Part shown: positions 5,009 through 33,933 of the stretch, in pieces
Numbering within the stretch: position 1 is the stretch's first letter
How the letters are laid out: every line of letters starts with the position of its first letter
Source: Eubacteriales bacterium
GTDB taxonomy: Bacteria; Bacillota; Clostridia; Oscillospirales; QAKW01
Assembly (NCBI GenBank): GCA_045546895.1
Contig: JAZQDS010000028.1
Coordinates: 1-49,385, forward strand
Direction: 5' to 3'
Length of the DNA: 49,385 nt
Position numbers and translations under genes: made by a program
The notes under the pieces: model-generated
Seen by the model: the letters and a program-made list of their open reading frames with translations, nothing else
The model's database searches: none
Told to the model about the DNA's origin: nothing

Positions 5009-5473
5009 TTAAAAGAGCGATATCAAAAGAATGATTGCTCCGCCGAAGATCATAAAATCTGCAAGATCAAAAACAAGCCTAGAAAGCCTTTTAATTTCCA
5101 AACGTGGAAAACGAATATAATCCACAACACAGCCGCGAATCCATCGATCCGAAACATTGCTCAAGGCACCCGCCAAAAGAAGTGTTGCGCCTATTTTCGC
5201 GCCAATGTCAGCACTTGCAGAGAGAAAGATCATTCCAAGCGGTATTGCAACAATGCAAAAAACAATGGTTTGAATTATAACTGCGGCATATTTTTTCTTG
5301 CTGAATATCCCAAAAATAATTCCGCGATTGCGGCATGGTCTTATTAAGATACTCCCTTTCATGAAAGTTCGCGAAATCTTAAACCGCTCTATATAATATT
5401 TTAATGCTGATTCAGCCGCAGCAAATGATAGAATAAAAATAATACAGCCAATCATTTTATTCGAAAAGTTCAT
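5009..5473 (-). CDS. lspA: Signal peptidase II (lipoprotein signal peptidase), divergent
   Basis: NRGIIFG, GALSNVSDR, GCVVDYI, VFDLADF (both catalytic Asp present); about four hydrophobic segments. Confidence 0.8.
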   Translation of the reverse strand: MNFSNKMIGCIIFILSFAAAESALKYYIERFKISRTFMKGSILIRPCRNRGIIFGIFSKKKYAAVIIQTIVFCIVAIPLGMIFLSASADIGAKIGATLLLAGALSNVSDRWIRGCVVDYIRFPRLEIKRLSRLVFDLADFMIFGGAIILLISLF

Positions 5474-5672
5474 CCAGCAAAGCGCGTACTTCGCTACGCG
5501 CCGCTTCGGTTGATTTTATATCCAAACTATACTTTTTTCCGTCAAAACAAATAATCTCGCCCTCCTCGCAGCCATCGGGCAGCATCTCGCGCGAAATCTC
5601 TATCGATGCACCTTGCTCATCGATCAAAACAGCAATATCGCCTTCAAAACGGTCAACGCTGAATTTTCTCAT
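5457..5672 (-). CDS. DUF3006-like small protein
   Basis: SVDRFEGDIAVL...LPDGCEEGEII pattern; ATGA overlap with the upstream MBL gene, a commonly seen pairing. Confidence 0.8.
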   Translation of the reverse strand: MRKFSVDRFEGDIAVLIDEQGASIEISREMLPDGCEEGEIICFDGKKYSLDIKSTEAARSEVRALLDELFE

Positions 5673-6559
5673 TGGTTTTCCACCTCAACTTCAATATTCT
5701 TACCATCTGTTTTAAATATAATATCCCCATCCATATCGGTTCGGTAAGTCTTTGTATCCGCCGCTTTTAATCGCTCCAGCAGTTCTTTATGGGGATGGCC
5801 ATACCGATTCCCCTCGCCGCAAGAAATGATGGCATAACGTGGATTTACAGCTTCCAAGAATTCCGCACCGGAAGCGGTTTCACTCCCATGATGGCCGGTT
5901 CTTAATACGGTTGAGCGAAGGTTTCGTCCATAATAATTAACCAAATCCTTCTCGGCGGGAATTTCCTGATCTCCTGTAATCAAAAATGAGGTTTTTTCAT
6001 ATTTTGCACGTAATATAATGGACTGATGATTCAGATCGCTATACGATGCAACCGGCCCCAATATCTCCATCTTGAAATCACCGCATTCAATTTTATCACC
6101 AACAGAAACGGTTGAAATCTTCTTTCCGAGCGATTTGATTTTTTTAAGTAGATTTATATAAACCGATGTTGTAGGCTCCGTCCCTTCGGTAGGGCGCATC
6201 ATATAGATATTCTTAACCTCAAATTTTTCTAAAATATCAATCGCACCGCCAATATGATCCTCATGAGGATGGCTGAGGATAAAATGATCGATTGCCTTAA
6301 TTTTTTTATCAGTCAGATGATCAATGATTTCATCGGCTTCGCTCGCGGTAGAGGCATCCATCAGCGCAACCGCGCCGCTTGAAATAAAAAGCGTACTGTC
6401 ACCCTGCCCGCAATCAATGAAATCAACATAGTTCCATTCTCCCGTCCCTTGAACGTCATTCGGAAAAAGATCATTTCTGAAATATGCTATTGCCGCCGCT
6501 ATAAGCACAGCAACAATACCGACCCATTTAATTATTCTCTTAATTTTACGCTTTGACAT
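5669..6559 (-). CDS. Membrane-anchored ComEC-like metallo-beta-lactamase-fold hydrolase
   Basis: N-terminal basic stretch plus TM anchor; DCGQGD, SHPHEDHIGG, TGD, GHHGS, YGHP all intact. Start ATG 6559 with GGAGG RBS. Confidence 0.88.
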   Translation of the reverse strand: MSKRKIKRIIKWVGIVAVLIAAAIAYFRNDLFPNDVQGTGEWNYVDFIDCGQGDSTLFISSGAVALMDASTASEADEIIDHLTDKKIKAIDHFILSHPHEDHIGGAIDILEKFEVKNIYMMRPTEGTEPTTSVYINLLKKIKSLGKKISTVSVGDKIECGDFKMEILGPVASYSDLNHQSIILRAKYEKTSFLITGDQEIPAEKDLVNYYGRNLRSTVLRTGHHGSETASGAEFLEAVNPRYAIISCGEGNRYGHPHKELLERLKAADTKTYRTDMDGDIIFKTDGKNIEVEVENQ

Positions 6560-6576
6560 AGAATCCTCCAATTGAA

Positions 6577-6604
6577 ATGATCCGCAGCAAAAACTGCGGA
6601 TCAT
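6577..6604. other. Intercistronic hairpin (mRNA stability element or partial terminator)
   Basis: ATGATCCGCAG-6 nt-CTGCGGATCAT between the ClpP-like and MBL genes; weak U tract. Confidence 0.55.
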
Positions 6605-6609
6605 AATTA

Positions 6610-7155
6610 TTATTCAATAACGGTATCAATCAAGCCATATGCCTTTGCATCCTCGGCAAATAACCAATATTTGCGTTCAAGATCGGCGGCCAGTTCCTCT
6701 TTGTTTTTGCCGCAAGCTTCCGCAAGAAGGGCATTTACTCTCTTTTTGCTGGCAAGAAGATGCTCAGTCTCCAATTCGATATCCGATGCCTGACCAAAGG
6801 TGCGATCACGCCCTACCTGCATCAGCATAATTTCCGCATTTGCGTAAGCAGCGCGTTTCCCCTGCGAACCGCCGGCTAAAAGAAGAGCCGATAAGCCATG
6901 GGCTTTGCCGATACAAAGAGTTTCAACCTCGCAGGAAAGATGCCGCATCGCATCATAAACCGCCAGAATTTCTGTTTCAATGCCACCGGAACAATTTATA
7001 ATCAGCTTAATGGGATCCGAGTTCTCCTCTTGCAAAACCAGCATTGCGCCGATAATTTTCTCCGCTTTCTTTTCGGTCAGTTCGCCAAAAAGAAGGATGG
7101 TGCGCTGATCCAAAAGCTTTGCAAACATTTTATTTTTTTCACTATTTTCAAACAT
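6610..7155 (-). CDS. ClpP-family protein lacking the catalytic triad (ClpR-like pseudoprotease)
   Basis: ClpP fold signatures (LLDQRTILLFG, INCSGG, GQASDI, AYGLID) but Ser to Gly (KAHGL), His to Met (IMLMQ), Asp to Lys (ERKYW). Start ATG 7155 with AAGGAG RBS. Confidence 0.85.
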   Translation of the reverse strand: MFENSEKNKMFAKLLDQRTILLFGELTEKKAEKIIGAMLVLQEENSDPIKLIINCSGGIETEILAVYDAMRHLSCEVETLCIGKAHGLSALLLAGGSQGKRAAYANAEIMLMQVGRDRTFGQASDIELETEHLLASKKRVNALLAEACGKNKEELAADLERKYWLFAEDAKAYGLIDTVIE

Positions 7156-7172
7156 ATTGATTCTCCTTAATC

Positions 7173-7769
7173 TCATTTGATATCATCGATACGCATTTTT
7201 CTCGAAAGATAAAAATTGCCCGTAATCAAAGCCTTCAGCTGATCATCGCATTCAATCAATACCGTTCGATTCTCGCGAACAAGAGATAATGTAAATTCTT
7301 GCTCCATCATTGATATATTATCGCCCTTTTCGGCAAATCCAAACATCAATTCTTGGGTAAACACCGCGCCATTCTCTTCGCTCTCCTGAAGCTTCTCAAA
7401 AAGAGTAGAATCGGCAAGGGCGTAGTTCATTGCTGTCGTTGTTGCCAAATTATACAATTCCTGAATGTTCGGCATTTTACATTTTATAACTGCCTCATCG
7501 CCCGATATCTTTTTAATCTCATATTTCAGATCTTTATAAAGCAATTGATAAAGCTGAACATATCGGGAATCATTGAAAATATCATCAACATAAACATATT
7601 CCGAATTATCGGGAAACTCCGTAAGATAAGAACGCATTTCCTGACGGTCATATTTTTGAGTTGCTTTCATAAAAGCATCAATGCAAGCTGTTTCCGCCTC
7701 ATAGGAGGAGCAAGCGCCCATAACCAAAGCCGTTGCCAGCAATAATACGATTGCGATTATTCTTTTCAT
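7173..7769 (-). CDS. Lipoprotein of unknown function
   Basis: MKRIIAIVLLLATALVMGA-C lipobox from ATG 7769. Confidence 0.8.
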   Translation of the reverse strand: MKRIIAIVLLLATALVMGACSSYEAETACIDAFMKATQKYDRQEMRSYLTEFPDNSEYVYVDDIFNDSRYVQLYQLLYKDLKYEIKKISGDEAVIKCKMPNIQELYNLATTTAMNYALADSTLFEKLQESEENGAVFTQELMFGFAEKGDNISMMEQEFTLSLVRENRTVLIECDDQLKALITGNFYLSRKMRIDDIK

Positions 7770-7799
7770 CTGATCCGTCCTTATTTTATTTATGTTGTC

Positions 7800-7828
7800 A
7801 GTATAGCATAGCATAACATTTTTTTCAA
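7800..7828 (-). promoter_or_regulatory. Sigma-A promoter for the lipoprotein-to-lspA operon
   Basis: TTGAAA-17 bp-TATACT with extended TG. Confidence 0.7.
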
Positions 7829-7891: not shown

Positions 7892-8662
7892 ATGGATACC
7901 AATTGCAACAACTGCGAATTCGAGAATTTCAAAGATGAAATTTGCGTAAATGTTCAAAAAATCTACGATACCTGTAAGGATAAAGATTGCCTGAGCGATA
8001 TGCGCGTTTACTTAAGTCCCGGTGATCAAACACTTATTGATAACGCAATTAATATTCGAGCTCGTCATTCAGAGCTGATTTGGACAACAGTTACTCTCGA
8101 GCCGGTTCCATTCAACAAGGGCTATTATGGAATTGATCTTACCTTCTATTTCCGAACAGGATTTGAGGTTTATACCGGAAACAGCCGCCCTTCGATTGTA
8201 GAAGGCCTATCATTTTATAATAAAAAGGTAATTCTTTACGGCAGCGAGGGCAACACAACCACATTCTCTTCCGCTATCAACGGAGCACCCCAATTGCCCA
8301 ATCGCAATATGCCGATCGCCGAGGTCGAAGTTGTTGATCCGATTGTTTTGAATACACGGATCATCAACCCCTCATGCAATTGCTGCTGCTCTGAAGCAGA
8401 TCATCTGAATCTGCCCTCGCAGGTTTCTTGCTTATTCTGCGATGATCTTACCGAGGTGGCAAACAGGAAACTTGTTGTTTCTCTCGGTTTGTTCAGCATC
8501 GTTCGAATTATTCGGGATGTTCAGGTAAAGATTCCATCTGCTCAATTCTGCTTACCTGAAAAAGAATGTAAAGGCCCGAAGGAAGAAGAACCCTGCAGCT
8601 TTTTCGAAAAGCTTTGCTTCCCTACCAATGAATTTTTTCCTCCCGAAAATAATTGCAACTAA
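7892..8662 (+). CDS. Cysteine-rich hypothetical protein, probable spore coat/exosporium component
   Basis: AAGGAGG RBS; CVNVQKIYDTCKDKDC, CNCCC and CSFFEKLCFPTNEFFP motifs; sigK-type promoter; monocistronic. Confidence 0.65.
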   Translation: MDTNCNNCEFENFKDEICVNVQKIYDTCKDKDCLSDMRVYLSPGDQTLIDNAINIRARHSELIWTTVTLEPVPFNKGYYGIDLTFYFRTGFEVYTGNSRPSIVEGLSFYNKKVILYGSEGNTTTFSSAINGAPQLPNRNMPIAEVEVVDPIVLNTRIINPSCNCCCSEADHLNLPSQVSCLFCDDLTEVANRKLVVSLGLFSIVRIIRDVQVKIPSAQFCLPEKECKGPKEEEPCSFFEKLCFPTNEFFPPENNCN

Positions 8663-9174: not shown

Positions 9175-9194
9175 GGGTTGCACCTCGTTTCTTT

Positions 9195-9220
9195 AAAAAA
9201 GGGACCTAAAAAGGTCCCTT
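9195..9220 (-). terminator. Terminator downstream of tRNA-Gly
   Basis: AAGGGACC-loop-GGTCCC-TTTTTT on the minus strand. Confidence 0.7.
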
Positions 9221-9223
9221 ATA

Positions 9224-9297
9224 TGGAGCGGGTAATGGGAGTCGAACCCACCTATCAACCTTGGGAAGGTCGCATTCTACCGATGAATTATACCCGC
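9224..9297 (-). tRNA. tRNA-Gly (anticodon CCC)
   Basis: GCGGGTATAATTCATCGGTAGAATGCGACCTTCCCAAGGTTGATAGGTGGGTTCGACTCCCATTACCCGCTCCA: cloverleaf, GTTCGA T-loop, encoded CCA, 74 nt. Confidence 0.97.
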
Positions 9298-9311
9298 AAA
9301 TACTATGGTTT

Positions 9312-9340
9312 AGTATACACTCTTTTTCCCTGCTCGTCAA
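9312..9340 (-). promoter_or_regulatory. Sigma-A promoter for tRNA-Gly
   Basis: TTGACG-17 bp-TATACT. Confidence 0.8.
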
Positions 9341-9350
9341 GTGTTTTTAT

Positions 9351-9384
9351 AAAAAAATCGGTGCCGATTGAAATCGGCACCGAT
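9351..9384 (-). terminator. Terminator of the transketolase operon
   Basis: ATCGGTGCCGATT / AATCGGCACCGAT stem followed by a T run on the minus strand. Confidence 0.88.
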
Positions 9385-9390
9385 ATGTAA

Positions 9391-31896: not shown

Positions 31897-33909
31897 TTAT
31901 TTGCAAATTATACAAATTGCACAAACCGGAAGGAACCAAATCGTTTGAAATGCCAAAATTTGAAGGGCTGTATTATCGCTATATCCCGCCAAAGCAATAA
32001 AAAACATCAGTACAATCGATAAAATGGCATAAATAATGCGGATAATCCCATTAATTTTCAACGCTGTAAGCAGCTTGCTGGCGCCATAAAGCGATGCCAA
32101 TAATCCCCGCGCGCGCGAAGTGGATGCAATCAAATCAGAGGATTTCGATTTTCGCTTCAAATACTCTTTGCAGCCAAATGCCGTTTCGGGGGTTACAAAA
32201 TGAAAGAGTTCCATATTTATTTGAGGATAAAGCTTTTTCAAAAGCGCTTCATTAAATAAAAAGTCGTTTGAAATCAGCCCTACGCTTACTTGCTCCTCAT
32301 CAGCCAATCGAATTGCCGCTTCTGTATTGGGATCACGCTCGAAGCTAACAAGGAAGATCCCCACAGCACTCTTATGATAAGCAACATAAACAGGATAATA
32401 GCATTCCTTAAGCTCCATCTTTTTGAATTGTTCCGGAATCTCAATATTAAAATGATTCATCAACAATTCATTACCGATCAAAAACATCTTACTATGAATA
32501 AGCGCGGAATATCCCATTCCCTCATGACAGTAAATATCATCAACCCGCGGAAGTTCAATTGATTTTTGATCAATCATCTTCATAAAGAGAGATTGGATCG
32601 GTGTGCCGACCTCTTTAAAAAGCGCGGCAATATTGGTAATCAGCGTATCAATCTCCATATCACCGATCGCTTTGATTCCCTGAAGAAGAACAGCTTCATC
32701 ACCCAGAAAGTCCTCTTCAGAAATGATCATAAGATCGGAATCTTCAAGATCCTTTGCCGCCTGCGCAGAAATCAATACACCGCCGTTTTTGCGCACCTTC
32801 TTCCCTACTTTTAAAACGGAAGTTGCATAATAATGCCTTGAGAAAAACGGAACAGAAATGGAAAAAGCAGCCGCAGGGAATAAAAGACCCGCCTGCCAAC
32901 CTGCAAGCTGAAAGACAGCAACAGTTCCCGCTATTATCAAAAAAATTGTCAAGAATAAAAATCGATACAGCTTGTGATCACATTCATAATCGCTGAAACA
33001 ACGCTCAATGCAACCGGAAACAAGCCCTGTGCGATGGGCATACATTACTTCCCCGCCCTCACCTGTTTCCAAGATCAAGCGATTATTAGTCTCAACTGCC
33101 GGCGGTACACTGACTGTAAGCTTATCAGAGCTGACAGAAAGCTTCTTGAAATTATTCTTAATATTAGAAGCTATTCTCTTTTTTGCAACAACATTGAAAT
33201 AAAGACCCAAAGACAAAATCAACTCCAGATTCAATGTTGATGGTAAAACATCCGGCCTGATGATTGCCGCAATTCTTACGCCCAAAACCGATATTGCAAG
33301 CAAGGCAAGCAAGGTATCGGTATTGGCCTTTGCGCGAAGCAATGCCCCGAGTCCCTCGATAAAAATACCAAAGGAAAAAATAATACATGCAATATCAACC
33401 GCCAAAAATGAGGCATCAAACCAAGCAGATTCCGTACCGTAGGCAAAAAGCGAAGGTACAAAACCGGAAATGAATAAATAGGTTGTTATAATTGAAATAA
33501 TTAAGAAGACAACGGATTTAACCGCCATTTTTCCAACCGTATTCTTCAAATCACGGTAAATCTCATCGCGGTCCTCTTGATCCTCGTAATCCTCGATATC
33601 CTCTGCTTCAGTATCATCAAAAACAGGTCGATTAGGGATTTCATCCTCATCATTATCATCCTCAACGCCATGAATCATGCGTTTCAACGGAGATTTTTCG
33701 CCGGAGAAATCTCGCTGTTTGCGAATCTCATCAAATAAATCCTCATCAACAACGCCGCAGGAGGGCTCTTCCGACTCCTCCATCTTTTTTTCATGCGCGC
33801 GAATCAAATCCTGCGTTTTTTCAACAAGCTCAACATCCTCCTGAAGCGCATTGATCTTGGCCATGATTTCGTCAAAAGCAGATTGCTGATCTTTGGGCTC
33901 AAAATTCAT
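31897..33909 (-). CDS. Membrane protein, degenerate P1B (heavy-metal) P-type ATPase homologue with acidic N-terminus
   Basis: GLGALLRAKANTDTLLAL, KNGGVLISAQA, HEGMGYSALIHSKMFLIGN, VYVAYHKSAVGIF resemble CopA/ZntA segments; DKTGT, CPC, TGD and GDGxND are absent. Confidence 0.7.
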   Translation of the reverse strand: MNFEPKDQQSAFDEIMAKINALQEDVELVEKTQDLIRAHEKKMEESEEPSCGVVDEDLFDEIRKQRDFSGEKSPLKRMIHGVEDDNDEDEIPNRPVFDDTEAEDIEDYEDQEDRDEIYRDLKNTVGKMAVKSVVFLIISIITTYLFISGFVPSLFAYGTESAWFDASFLAVDIACIIFSFGIFIEGLGALLRAKANTDTLLALLAISVLGVRIAAIIRPDVLPSTLNLELILSLGLYFNVVAKKRIASNIKNNFKKLSVSSDKLTVSVPPAVETNNRLILETGEGGEVMYAHRTGLVSGCIERCFSDYECDHKLYRFLFLTIFLIIAGTVAVFQLAGWQAGLLFPAAAFSISVPFFSRHYYATSVLKVGKKVRKNGGVLISAQAAKDLEDSDLMIISEEDFLGDEAVLLQGIKAIGDMEIDTLITNIAALFKEVGTPIQSLFMKMIDQKSIELPRVDDIYCHEGMGYSALIHSKMFLIGNELLMNHFNIEIPEQFKKMELKECYYPVYVAYHKSAVGIFLVSFERDPNTEAAIRLADEEQVSVGLISNDFLFNEALLKKLYPQINMELFHFVTPETAFGCKEYLKRKSKSSDLIASTSRARGLLASLYGASKLLTALKINGIIRIIYAILSIVLMFFIALAGYSDNTALQILAFQTIWFLPVCAICIICK

Positions 33910-33933
33910 AATTACCACCTTAATTCTATCGTC

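Follow-up and report, generated by a model that had tools for sequence, protein, structure and literature searches.

What use is a proteolytic subunit that can no longer cut peptides to the bacteria that keep it? This question is raised by a gene on Eubacteriales bacterium contig JAZQDS010000028.1 (GCA_045546895.1; GTDB Bacillota; Clostridia; Oscillospirales; QAKW01), in a stretch of 49,385 nt that is called the window here. The gene encodes a homolog of ClpP in which all three residues of the Ser-His-Asp catalytic triad are replaced, and we refer to it as the paralog. Between tig and clpX the same genome has a canonical clpP whose triad is intact, and it also encodes ClpX and three class-I Hsp100 ATPases. 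It is near-certain that the paralog is a ClpP-fold protein that is incapable of Ser-His-Asp peptidase action and is maintained by selection. We give an even chance to the proposal that it builds a ring which neither cuts peptides nor docks an ATPase and which pairs, by way of its handle, with the ClpP of the genus.

A ClpP homolog without the catalytic triad

Two alignments, one with S. aureus ClpP and one with the genome's own ClpP, agree on the fate of the catalytic positions. Ser98 is replaced by Gly87 (GMAASMG in S. aureus ClpP versus GKAHGLS in the paralog), His123 by Met112 (MIHQP versus MLMQV), and Asp172 by Lys162 (DRDNF versus ERKYW). The paralog also has INCSGG where ClpP has INSPGG, and it retains the GQASDI and YGLID segments. 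An earlier note on this DNA had described the three replacements and these motifs, and every sequence detail that it gave agrees with the alignments.

The replacements are characteristic of a whole family. A search of 5.8 billion clustered proteins gave 1230 matches, and the first 72 of these constitute the ortholog family. These 72 clusters score 152-383 bits at 54-100% identity and are followed by a clear step down to ordinary ClpPs (at most 148 bits, 39-48% identity). A HMMER search of 1.84 billion representatives at 50% identity recovered the family as two clusters, one of them a fragment. The Ser98 position is Gly in 72/72 ortholog clusters, versus Ser in all of the 48 next-best ClpP matches. 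At the His123 position, the family has Thr (27 clusters), Met (13), Asn (11), Ser (9), Ala (6), or other residues (6), and the same 48 ClpPs invariably have His. Such drift is expected after a loss of catalysis. The Asp172 position is Lys in 67 clusters and Asn in five, compared with Asp in 46 and Asn in two of the next 48 ClpPs.

The earlier note had pointed to the Ser two residues downstream from Gly87 as a possible substitute nucleophile. This residue, Ser89, is not conserved (Ser in 40 clusters, Ala in 29, Thr in three). Indeed, the alignment of the 72 clusters contains no invariant Ser, Thr, or Cys that is absent from canonical ClpP; the invariant Thr79, Cys81, and Ser124 are found in canonical ClpP as well. 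The former active-site cleft has instead acquired family-specific charged residues, namely Lys84 (72/72 clusters), Glu60 (70/72), Arg116, Arg118 (71/72), and Lys162 (67/72). His86 is present in 61 of the 72 clusters and is replaced by Asn, Thr, Arg, or Tyr in the other 11.

The remainder of the protein is homologous to ClpP, and the open reading frame (ORF) is intact, as the earlier note had also stated. Pfam model PF00574 (CLP_protease) matches residues 6-181 with 168.6 bits (cut-off 20.2) and covers profile positions 5-180 of 182, and this full-length homology places the paralog in the ClpP family. In contrast, none of the eight ClpP models of NCBIfam is passed. The best of these, NF001368, gives 168.5 versus a cut-off of 249, and TIGR00493 gives 149.8 versus 308.6. 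The triad that is required of a catalytic ClpP at the equivalog level is missing, and in this one respect, as a ClpP homolog without a catalytic triad, the protein is like ClpR. Annotation pipelines name it an active "ATP-dependent Clp protease proteolytic subunit," which it cannot be.

An AlphaFold2 model built from the family alignment has a predicted local distance difference test score of 90.5 and includes the long handle helix. When this model was compared by Foldseek with S. aureus ClpP, the template modeling score was 0.91 and the root-mean-square deviation 1.1 Å, and the predicted structure is that of a ClpP fold with head domain and handle. The paralog is 39% identical to the canonical ClpP of its own genome, and its sequence contains no signal peptide.

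The strong ribosome binding site (RBS) that had been noted previously is a common property of the family: an AGGAG followed by an ATG occurs at the position equivalent to 7155 in 20/20 orthologous loci. We therefore prefer the start at 7155 over an alternative in-frame ATG at 7176, which overlaps the stop codon of the upstream lipoprotein-like gene.

Selection, distribution, and origin of the family

The paralog is under purifying selection and is not decaying. All 27 genomic copies in the genus lack internal stop codons and frameshifts; frameshifted orthologs were a finding that the earlier note had named as refuting its proposal. There are 34 invariant columns among 69 aligned family sequences, and the mean column identity is 63%. 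The ratio of nonsynonymous to synonymous substitution rates (dN/dS), a check that the earlier note had recommended, has a median pairwise value of 0.17 across 21 loci; synonymous divergence (dS) is near saturation, with values below 2 in only 41 of 210 pairs, and this makes the ratio rough, but it is far below 1. Neighboring genes have values of 0.18 (metallo-beta-lactamase [MBL]-fold protein), 0.24 (lipoprotein), and 0.03 (SpoIVA). Within its subclade the window's copy has diverged most, with a terminal branch of 0.43.

The earlier note had spoken of a Firmicute and of gut Clostridia, which proved too broad. The gene is confined to one GTDB genus. It is present in 27 of the 30 genomes of this genus (the source genome included), is absent from 19/19 genomes of two sister genera of the same family, and occurs in 18 of 401 genomes, representing one of 177 genera, in an even sample of the order. 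The paralog was missed in three genomes of the genus, which are 62, 64, and 89% complete. The flanking Cys-rich gene is missing from them as well, which indicates that the locus is unassembled rather than truly absent. Related loci come from metagenome-assembled genomes of "Eubacteriales" or "Clostridia," two of which are labeled as goat rectum and roe-deer colon. In 27/27 genomes that carry it, the paralog is accompanied by a ClpP-type match (98-127 bits).

To place the family among its relatives, a tree of 120 rows was built. The family was represented by 19 of its 72 members (the query and each fourth cluster) and the near ClpPs by 24 of 48 (each second one); the other rows were 14 ClpP-type sequences of the taxonomic family and 63 of 148 ClpP cluster representatives (those of 185-225 aa, the others being left out). 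The paralog family forms one clade on a long stem, with a Shimodaira-Hasegawa-like approximate likelihood ratio test value of 95, and its placement is without resolution. In a second tree of 52 rows, forcing the family together with the genus's own ClpP changed the log-likelihood by +13.3 relative to a free short search, with an approximately unbiased test probability of 0.685. This outcome is compatible with a duplication inside the genus, and long-branch attraction between two long stems could also produce it. When the family profile was compared with solved structures, the best 60 of 110 matches were all ClpP, and Firmicute ClpPs ranked first.

Because the paralog occurs in only one of 177 genera, its nearest relatives are Firmicute ClpPs, and sisterhood with its own ClpP is not rejected, the evidence leans against descent from the ClpR clade of cyanobacteria and plastids, the tree itself having been made without labeled ClpR sequences. 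The term "ClpR-like" used in the earlier note thus stands for a ClpP homolog that has no triad; it is an analogy, with no sign of membership in the ClpR clade. Moreover, the Ser nucleophile is missing, in most cases through a Ser-to-Gly change, from 14 of the 148 ClpP cluster representatives near the query; triad loss is therefore recurrent in the superfamily.

Several other members of the superfamily were encountered along the way. Thirteen of the 14 Ser-less representatives are P0122, P0136, P0146, P0168, P0171, P0181, P0189, P0190, P0198, P0203, P0223, P0265, and P0266. Twelve triad-deficient representatives were compared with NF009204 and with the equivalog cut-offs, and none passed. Some genomes of the genus carry additional divergent ClpP-like genes of about 201 aa (G020:C137:13195-13716, G021:C188:6254-6739, and G022:C114:82-552), which cluster with unrelated representatives and are possibly borne by prophages. 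By a simple pattern check, the copy in G021 has neither the Ser nor the His motif.

The third ClpP-superfamily gene of the genome encodes a protein of 239 aa that gives 78.6 bits to PF00574. From its sequence, and not from a curated call, we take this protein to be TepA-like (Bacillus type). The paralog itself was considered as a TepA and rejected, its BLASTP match to the 239-aa protein not being significant (E 0.099). It was also rejected as a phage prohead protease, since NF045542 gives 42.6 bits versus a cut-off of 120 and the neighbors are chromosomal housekeeping and sporulation genes.

Docking surface, handle, and the partner ClpP

What could a catalytically dead ClpP still do? The surfaces through which ClpP contacts its ATPases and its opposite ring provide the best clues. 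The earlier note had correctly called the N-terminal axial-loop region short: 13 residues precede the conserved LL pair in the paralog versus 23 in the genome's ClpP. Relative to ClpP, about 5 residues are missing here from the family and about 10 from the window's copy, whose N terminus is about 6 residues shorter than those of its orthologs. Pro5, Thr11, Arg13, Gly14, Glu15, Arg16, and Asp19, each found in at least 92% of ClpPs, are unconserved in the family. Also lost or relaxed are Pro67, the aromatic residue at position 83 (His in the window's copy), and the C-terminal tail. Tyr63 is kept in 53 of the 72 clusters and lost in 19, and the window's copy has Ile at this position (Ile52).

The excerpted text of PMC13689560 names pocket aromatics as elements for ATPase docking. 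Likewise, excerpts of PMC9823225 assign roles in unfoldase docking to the axial loop and C-terminal tail, and link the missing axial loops of ctClpP1 and paClpP2 to a lack of ClpX binding. The axial loop and the apical pocket aromatics used for unfoldase docking are not found in the paralog, and the elements for docking an ATPase are degraded in the family as a whole.

The handle presents the opposite picture. Residues 116-134 are the most conserved stretch of the family and are remodeled relative to ClpP. In the numbering of the genome's own ClpP, 14 of the 17 positions from 128 to 144 are identical in at least 71 of the 72 clusters, and the Gly127-Gly128 pair of ClpP has become Asp-Arg. Glu170-Arg171 is kept in 72/72 clusters. 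The handle is described as the major ring-ring interface, and Glu170-Arg171 as an inter-ring salt bridge, in passages of PMC9823225. By this comparison the ring-ring elements are retained. Complex prediction for the genus ClpP with the paralog, run from alignments and without controls, gave scores of 0.04 and 0.23 versus a mark of 0.32, and this is no verdict either way.

A second line of evidence comes from the canonical ClpP. Five ClpPs of the genus were compared with seven from the sister genera. Eighteen substitutions are fixed in the genus and absent from the sisters, and the reciprocal counts are two and three. Nine of the 18 fall in the handle (residues 125-158, or 34 of 193). The hypergeometric probability of this clustering is 0.0009, and when weighted by site variability it is 0.003 (148 representatives) or 0.03 (close set). 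Five of the 18 changes affect positions that are otherwise at least 90% conserved (Arg13, Ala114, Ile120, Gln132, and Ile136), and the handle changes include Gln132 to Ser and Ile136 to Val. The ClpP of the genus also has Arg139 and Arg141, and the paralog family has Glu139 in 72/72 clusters and Glu141 in 51/72. Basic residues at both 139 and 141 are found in five of the 148 ClpP representatives. Three of these five are themselves triad-deficient.

The relationships among the genera make this divergence conspicuous. SpoIVA identity is 69% with one sister genus, the nearest, and 49% with the other, distant one. For ClpP, in contrast, the genus shares 73% identity with each sister, whereas the sisters share 82% with each other; within the genus the value is 93.5%. 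The ratio of between-genus to within-genus divergence is 4.1 for ClpP versus 1.5-2.0 for four genes of the paralog locus. The pattern is an episodic burst of change on the stem of the ClpP in the paralog-bearing genus, concentrated at the ring-ring interface and followed by renewed constraint.

Because the ring-ring features of the paralog are retained and the handle of its partner has changed, we infer co-assembly with ClpP, either ring on ring or mixed within rings. In this view, selection has preserved the gene ever since the genus, a group of uncultured Clostridia of the gut that form spores, arose. Its product would form a ClpP-type heptameric ring that stacks onto a canonical ClpP ring via the remodeled, invariant handle and the Glu170-Arg171 bridge. 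In the resulting asymmetric core, the live ring would dock ClpX or ClpC and the dead ring would dock neither. With half the active sites and a single entry face, such a core would be expected to alter the rate, processivity, or product release of Clp proteolysis. The proposal combines the ClpR idea of a dead subunit with the ClpP1/ClpP2 idea of one docking and one non-docking ring. Ring formation, pairing, and physiological effect are all predictions of the proposal rather than observations.

Several points weigh against it. Terminal branches are 0.2-0.5 for the paralog versus 0.002-0.04 for the ClpP of the genus, and such fast evolution is unexpected for a stoichiometric core subunit; plastid Clp subunits reportedly also evolve fast (10.1101/405126). 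The dN/dS values carry the roughness mentioned above. Homotypic stacking would account for an invariant handle just as well. The handle changes in the partner ClpP amount to one evolutionary event, the limits of the handle region were set after the data had been inspected, and the five ClpP genomes differ from the sample of eight loci from which the other genes were taken. Positions 139 and 141 are presumed to oppose each other across the rings. The metatranscriptome offers a weak hint of expression: a 231-nt contig corresponding to 6632-6862 with 6 differences lies inside the paralog gene, and other contigs fall on the lipoprotein, MBL, DUF3006, and Cys-rich genes. These data are three runs of one study, the contig depth is about 3, and such libraries can contain DNA; gaps in the coverage carry no meaning.

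A more specific form of co-assembly is possible, though we would not expect it to prove correct. A recent clpP duplication within the genus may have created an obligate core of one live and one dead ring. One copy would have lost catalysis and docking and rebuilt its handle, and the other would have undergone the handle burst, including the charge swap of Arg139/Arg141 versus Glu139/Glu141. This swap would disfavor homomeric ClpP14 and favor the hetero-pair. The origin and added value of dead ClpP subunits are still debated. If the duplication did occur, it would reveal the birth of a ClpR-type architecture at shallow evolutionary depth, and both partners as well as the unduplicated state of the sister genera would be available for reconstruction. 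The event would be young and limited to one genus, the sister genera having kept the unduplicated state and the partner showing a matching interface burst. Two small recombinant proteins would then suffice to test how a pseudo-subunit originates. Because the organisms are uncultured and the kind of subunit is already known, the wider impact is moderate.

It is unlikely, but deserves serious consideration, that the paralog acts as a stand-alone homo-oligomer. In this case a non-proteolytic heptamer or tetradecamer that does not join ClpP would serve as a closed-chamber holder of peptides or unfolded chains, or as an inert plug. Invariance of the handle and of Glu170-Arg171 would suit homotypic stacking too, and both the new conserved charged residues in the former cleft and an evolutionary rate far from that of ClpP would be natural. 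This alternative leaves unexplained why the canonical ClpP of this very genus had a handle burst. To our knowledge, no triad-less ClpP paralog working alone has been described. ClpR is always found in mixed cores in the excerpts of PMC7966870 and PMC13689560 that we consulted.

Co-assembly must also be weighed against the improbable idea that the remodeled pocket (Lys84, His86, Glu60, and Lys162) is a new enzymatic or ligand-binding site, and thus a repurposed ClpP/crotonase-fold site. These family-specific residues surround the former nucleophile and are conserved to the extent given above. However, the pocket has no new invariant nucleophile, given that Ser89 is variable and that Thr79, Cys81, and Ser124 are shared with canonical ClpP. 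In addition, His86 is replaced in 11 of the 72 clusters, and the charged residues may do no more than form salt bridges that keep the handle extended when the triad is absent.

The locus and comparison with known systems

The locus features are collected in Table 1. Gene order within the genus is fixed. It runs from tkt through dCMP deaminase, the divergent Cys-rich gene, and the lipoprotein gene to the paralog, after which MBL-DUF3006, spoIVA, and comEC usually come.

Table 1. Features of the paralog locus in window coordinates, and the TepA-like gene of the same genome
Feature	Position	Strand	Basis or remark
Triad-less ClpP paralog coding sequence, 181 aa + stop	6610..7155	-	ORF and translation; ATG at 7155, stop codon 6610-6612
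Paralog RBS AAGGAGA, 6 nt before ATG 7155	7162..7168	-	Read from sequence
Gly87 codon at catalytic Ser98 position	6895..6897	-	Both alignments; Gly in 72/72 ortholog clusters
Met112 codon at catalytic His123 position	6820..6822	-	Both alignments
Lys162 codon at catalytic Asp172 position	6670..6672	-	Both alignments
Short, unconserved N-terminal region replacing ClpP axial loop	7113..7155	-	Family versus ClpP alignment
Handle segment, residues 116-134, RDRTFGQASDIELETEHLL	6754..6810	-	Most conserved stretch of family, remodeled versus ClpP
Lipoprotein-like gene, 213-aa ORF, no family	7173..7814	-	Directly upstream of paralog, co-directional, no terminator between
Membrane-anchored metallo-beta-lactamase-fold protein (ComEC C-terminal type), 311-aa ORF	5669..6604	-	Pfam, NCBIfam
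DUF3006 gene	5457..5672	-	Pfam, NCBIfam
LspA gene	5009..5473	-	Pfam, NCBIfam
11-bp palindromic stem-loop	6577..6604	.	Terminator-like; in 50-nt gap (6560..6609) before ATG 6559
TepA-like gene, 239 aa, third ClpP-superfamily gene of genome	L003 1399..2118 = G000:C1	-	Weak ClpP, SppA, head-protease matches

The lipoprotein-like ORF has a signal peptide with a Cys lipobox after an internal Met and no Pfam or NCBIfam match. It lies directly 5′ of the paralog in 20/20 loci, separated by 6-63 nt or overlapping. On the 3′ side, the MBL gene follows in 17 of 20 loci, spoIVA follows directly in two, and the remaining locus ends too early. Among 49 genomes of the taxonomic family, 43 have a homolog of the lipoprotein; these include 17 of the 19 sister-genus genomes, which are without the paralog. 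In five sister-genus loci that were fetched, the paralog and the MBL gene are never found 3′ of the lipoprotein gene (5/5). In L043 and L047, the two of these loci in which the ORFs farther downstream were scanned, genes for a penicillin-binding protein (PBP) and alanyl-tRNA synthetase (AlaRS) follow it. The difference in gene order implies that the paralog sits at a synteny breakpoint and that its neighbors are not old partners. Indeed, no old functional partners emerged when the gene order of the sister genera was searched for them.

In the window, the lipoprotein reading frame crosses a short conserved spacer that separates the lipoprotein and paralog genes elsewhere. The spacer motif, GAYGATRATA-like and followed by AAAGGAGA, is present in most of loci L004-L023 about 20-40 nt upstream of the paralog start, and lies at about 7170-7195 in the window. 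It could be a promoter -10 element or a product of shared descent. A sigma-70 promoter scan was uninformative, with 17 sites versus 15.2 expected.

The MBL gene probably starts at ATG 6559, which has a GGAGGA RBS and is followed by a transmembrane helix, and not at 6604. The stem-loop coincides with the first 15 codons of the longer MBL ORF. It has no strong U-tract on the minus strand and is a candidate weak terminator or stabilizer.

Divergent from the lipoprotein gene, a Cys-rich 256-aa protein is encoded at 7892..8662 (+), with CxxC-type clusters at both ends and no match to a family in Pfam or NCBIfam. Identity is 72-82% among copies of the genus and 52-59% in the sister genera. Its gene always adjoins the dCMP deaminase and lipoprotein genes, and it may be spore-associated. 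Farther away, a tRNA-Gly (CCC) at 9224..9297 (-) is overlapped by a spurious 70-aa ORF at 9178..9390 (+). A 673-aa ORF at 31897..33918 (-), between the genes for EF-G and a SpoU methylase, has no Pfam family at E 1e-5.

The constancy of the flanking genes, with the lipoprotein gene upstream and the MBL gene downstream in 17 of 20 loci, might be taken to mean that the partners of the paralog are the products of its operon neighbors (lipoprotein, membrane MBL-fold protein, DUF3006, and LspA) and not the Clp system. We judge this quite improbable. All of the loci belong to one genus, in which a shared gene order is expected from descent, and in the sister genera the lipoprotein gene persists without the paralog, with PBP and AlaRS following it in L043 and L047. 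Two loci lack MBL-DUF3006 altogether, and the lipoprotein is exported, whereas the paralog has no signal peptide. That the gene is a decaying duplicate, a functionless pseudogene in the making, is scarcely credible: the lost triad, the faster evolution than that of ClpP, and the divergence of the window's copy would agree with decay, but no stop codon or frameshift in 27 copies, a dN/dS of about 0.17, 34 invariant columns, a near-invariant 17-residue handle, and a strong RBS kept in 21/21 copies do not.

How does the paralog compare with known systems? Inactive ClpP paralogs are textbook knowledge for cyanobacteria and plastids, and the Ser-to-Gly change seen here is also usual in plant ClpRs. 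ClpR is established, in passages of PMC7966870, as a triad-less subunit beside catalytic ClpPs in cyanobacteria, plastids, and apicoplasts. Like ClpR as described there, the paralog is without a triad and coexists with a catalytic ClpP. Unlike ClpR, it is confined to one genus of Clostridia, and its co-assembly with ClpP is a proposal.

Listeria ClpP1 and M. tuberculosis ClpP1 are examples of non-docking partner rings. In this respect the paralog also resembles Chlamydia ClpP1 and P. aeruginosa ClpP2, which, in the excerpts of PMC9823225, are second ClpPs that lack functional axial loops or pockets, do not bind an unfoldase, and stack through the handle on the ring that is able to dock. Partner rings of such two-ClpP systems differ from the paralog, however, in that they keep Ser-His-Asp or Ser-His-Asn and contribute catalysis, whereas the paralog has lost all three residues.

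The closest parallel was reported in 2026. Actinoplanes missouriensis ClpP3 is a triad-less protein that is restricted to part of one genus and was read by its authors as ClpR-type, according to the excerpted text of PMC13689560. The same excerpts indicate that ClpP3 shares with the paralog a spore-forming host and missing aromatics on the docking surface. It belongs to a different phylum and is clearly independent of the paralog. ClpP3 is 22-26% identical to its own paralogs, compared with 39% for the Clostridia protein, and its knock-out has a phenotype of conditional sporangium dehiscence (PMC13689560, in part), whereas the Clostridia paralog is known as a sequence. In the full-text literature, subscription journals being outside this coverage, no description of a triad-less ClpP paralog in Firmicutes was found. 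Dead subunits of the ClpR type were thus known already, and what is new here is a triad-less ClpP in a genus of Clostridia together with an apparent co-change in the handle of its catalytic partner.

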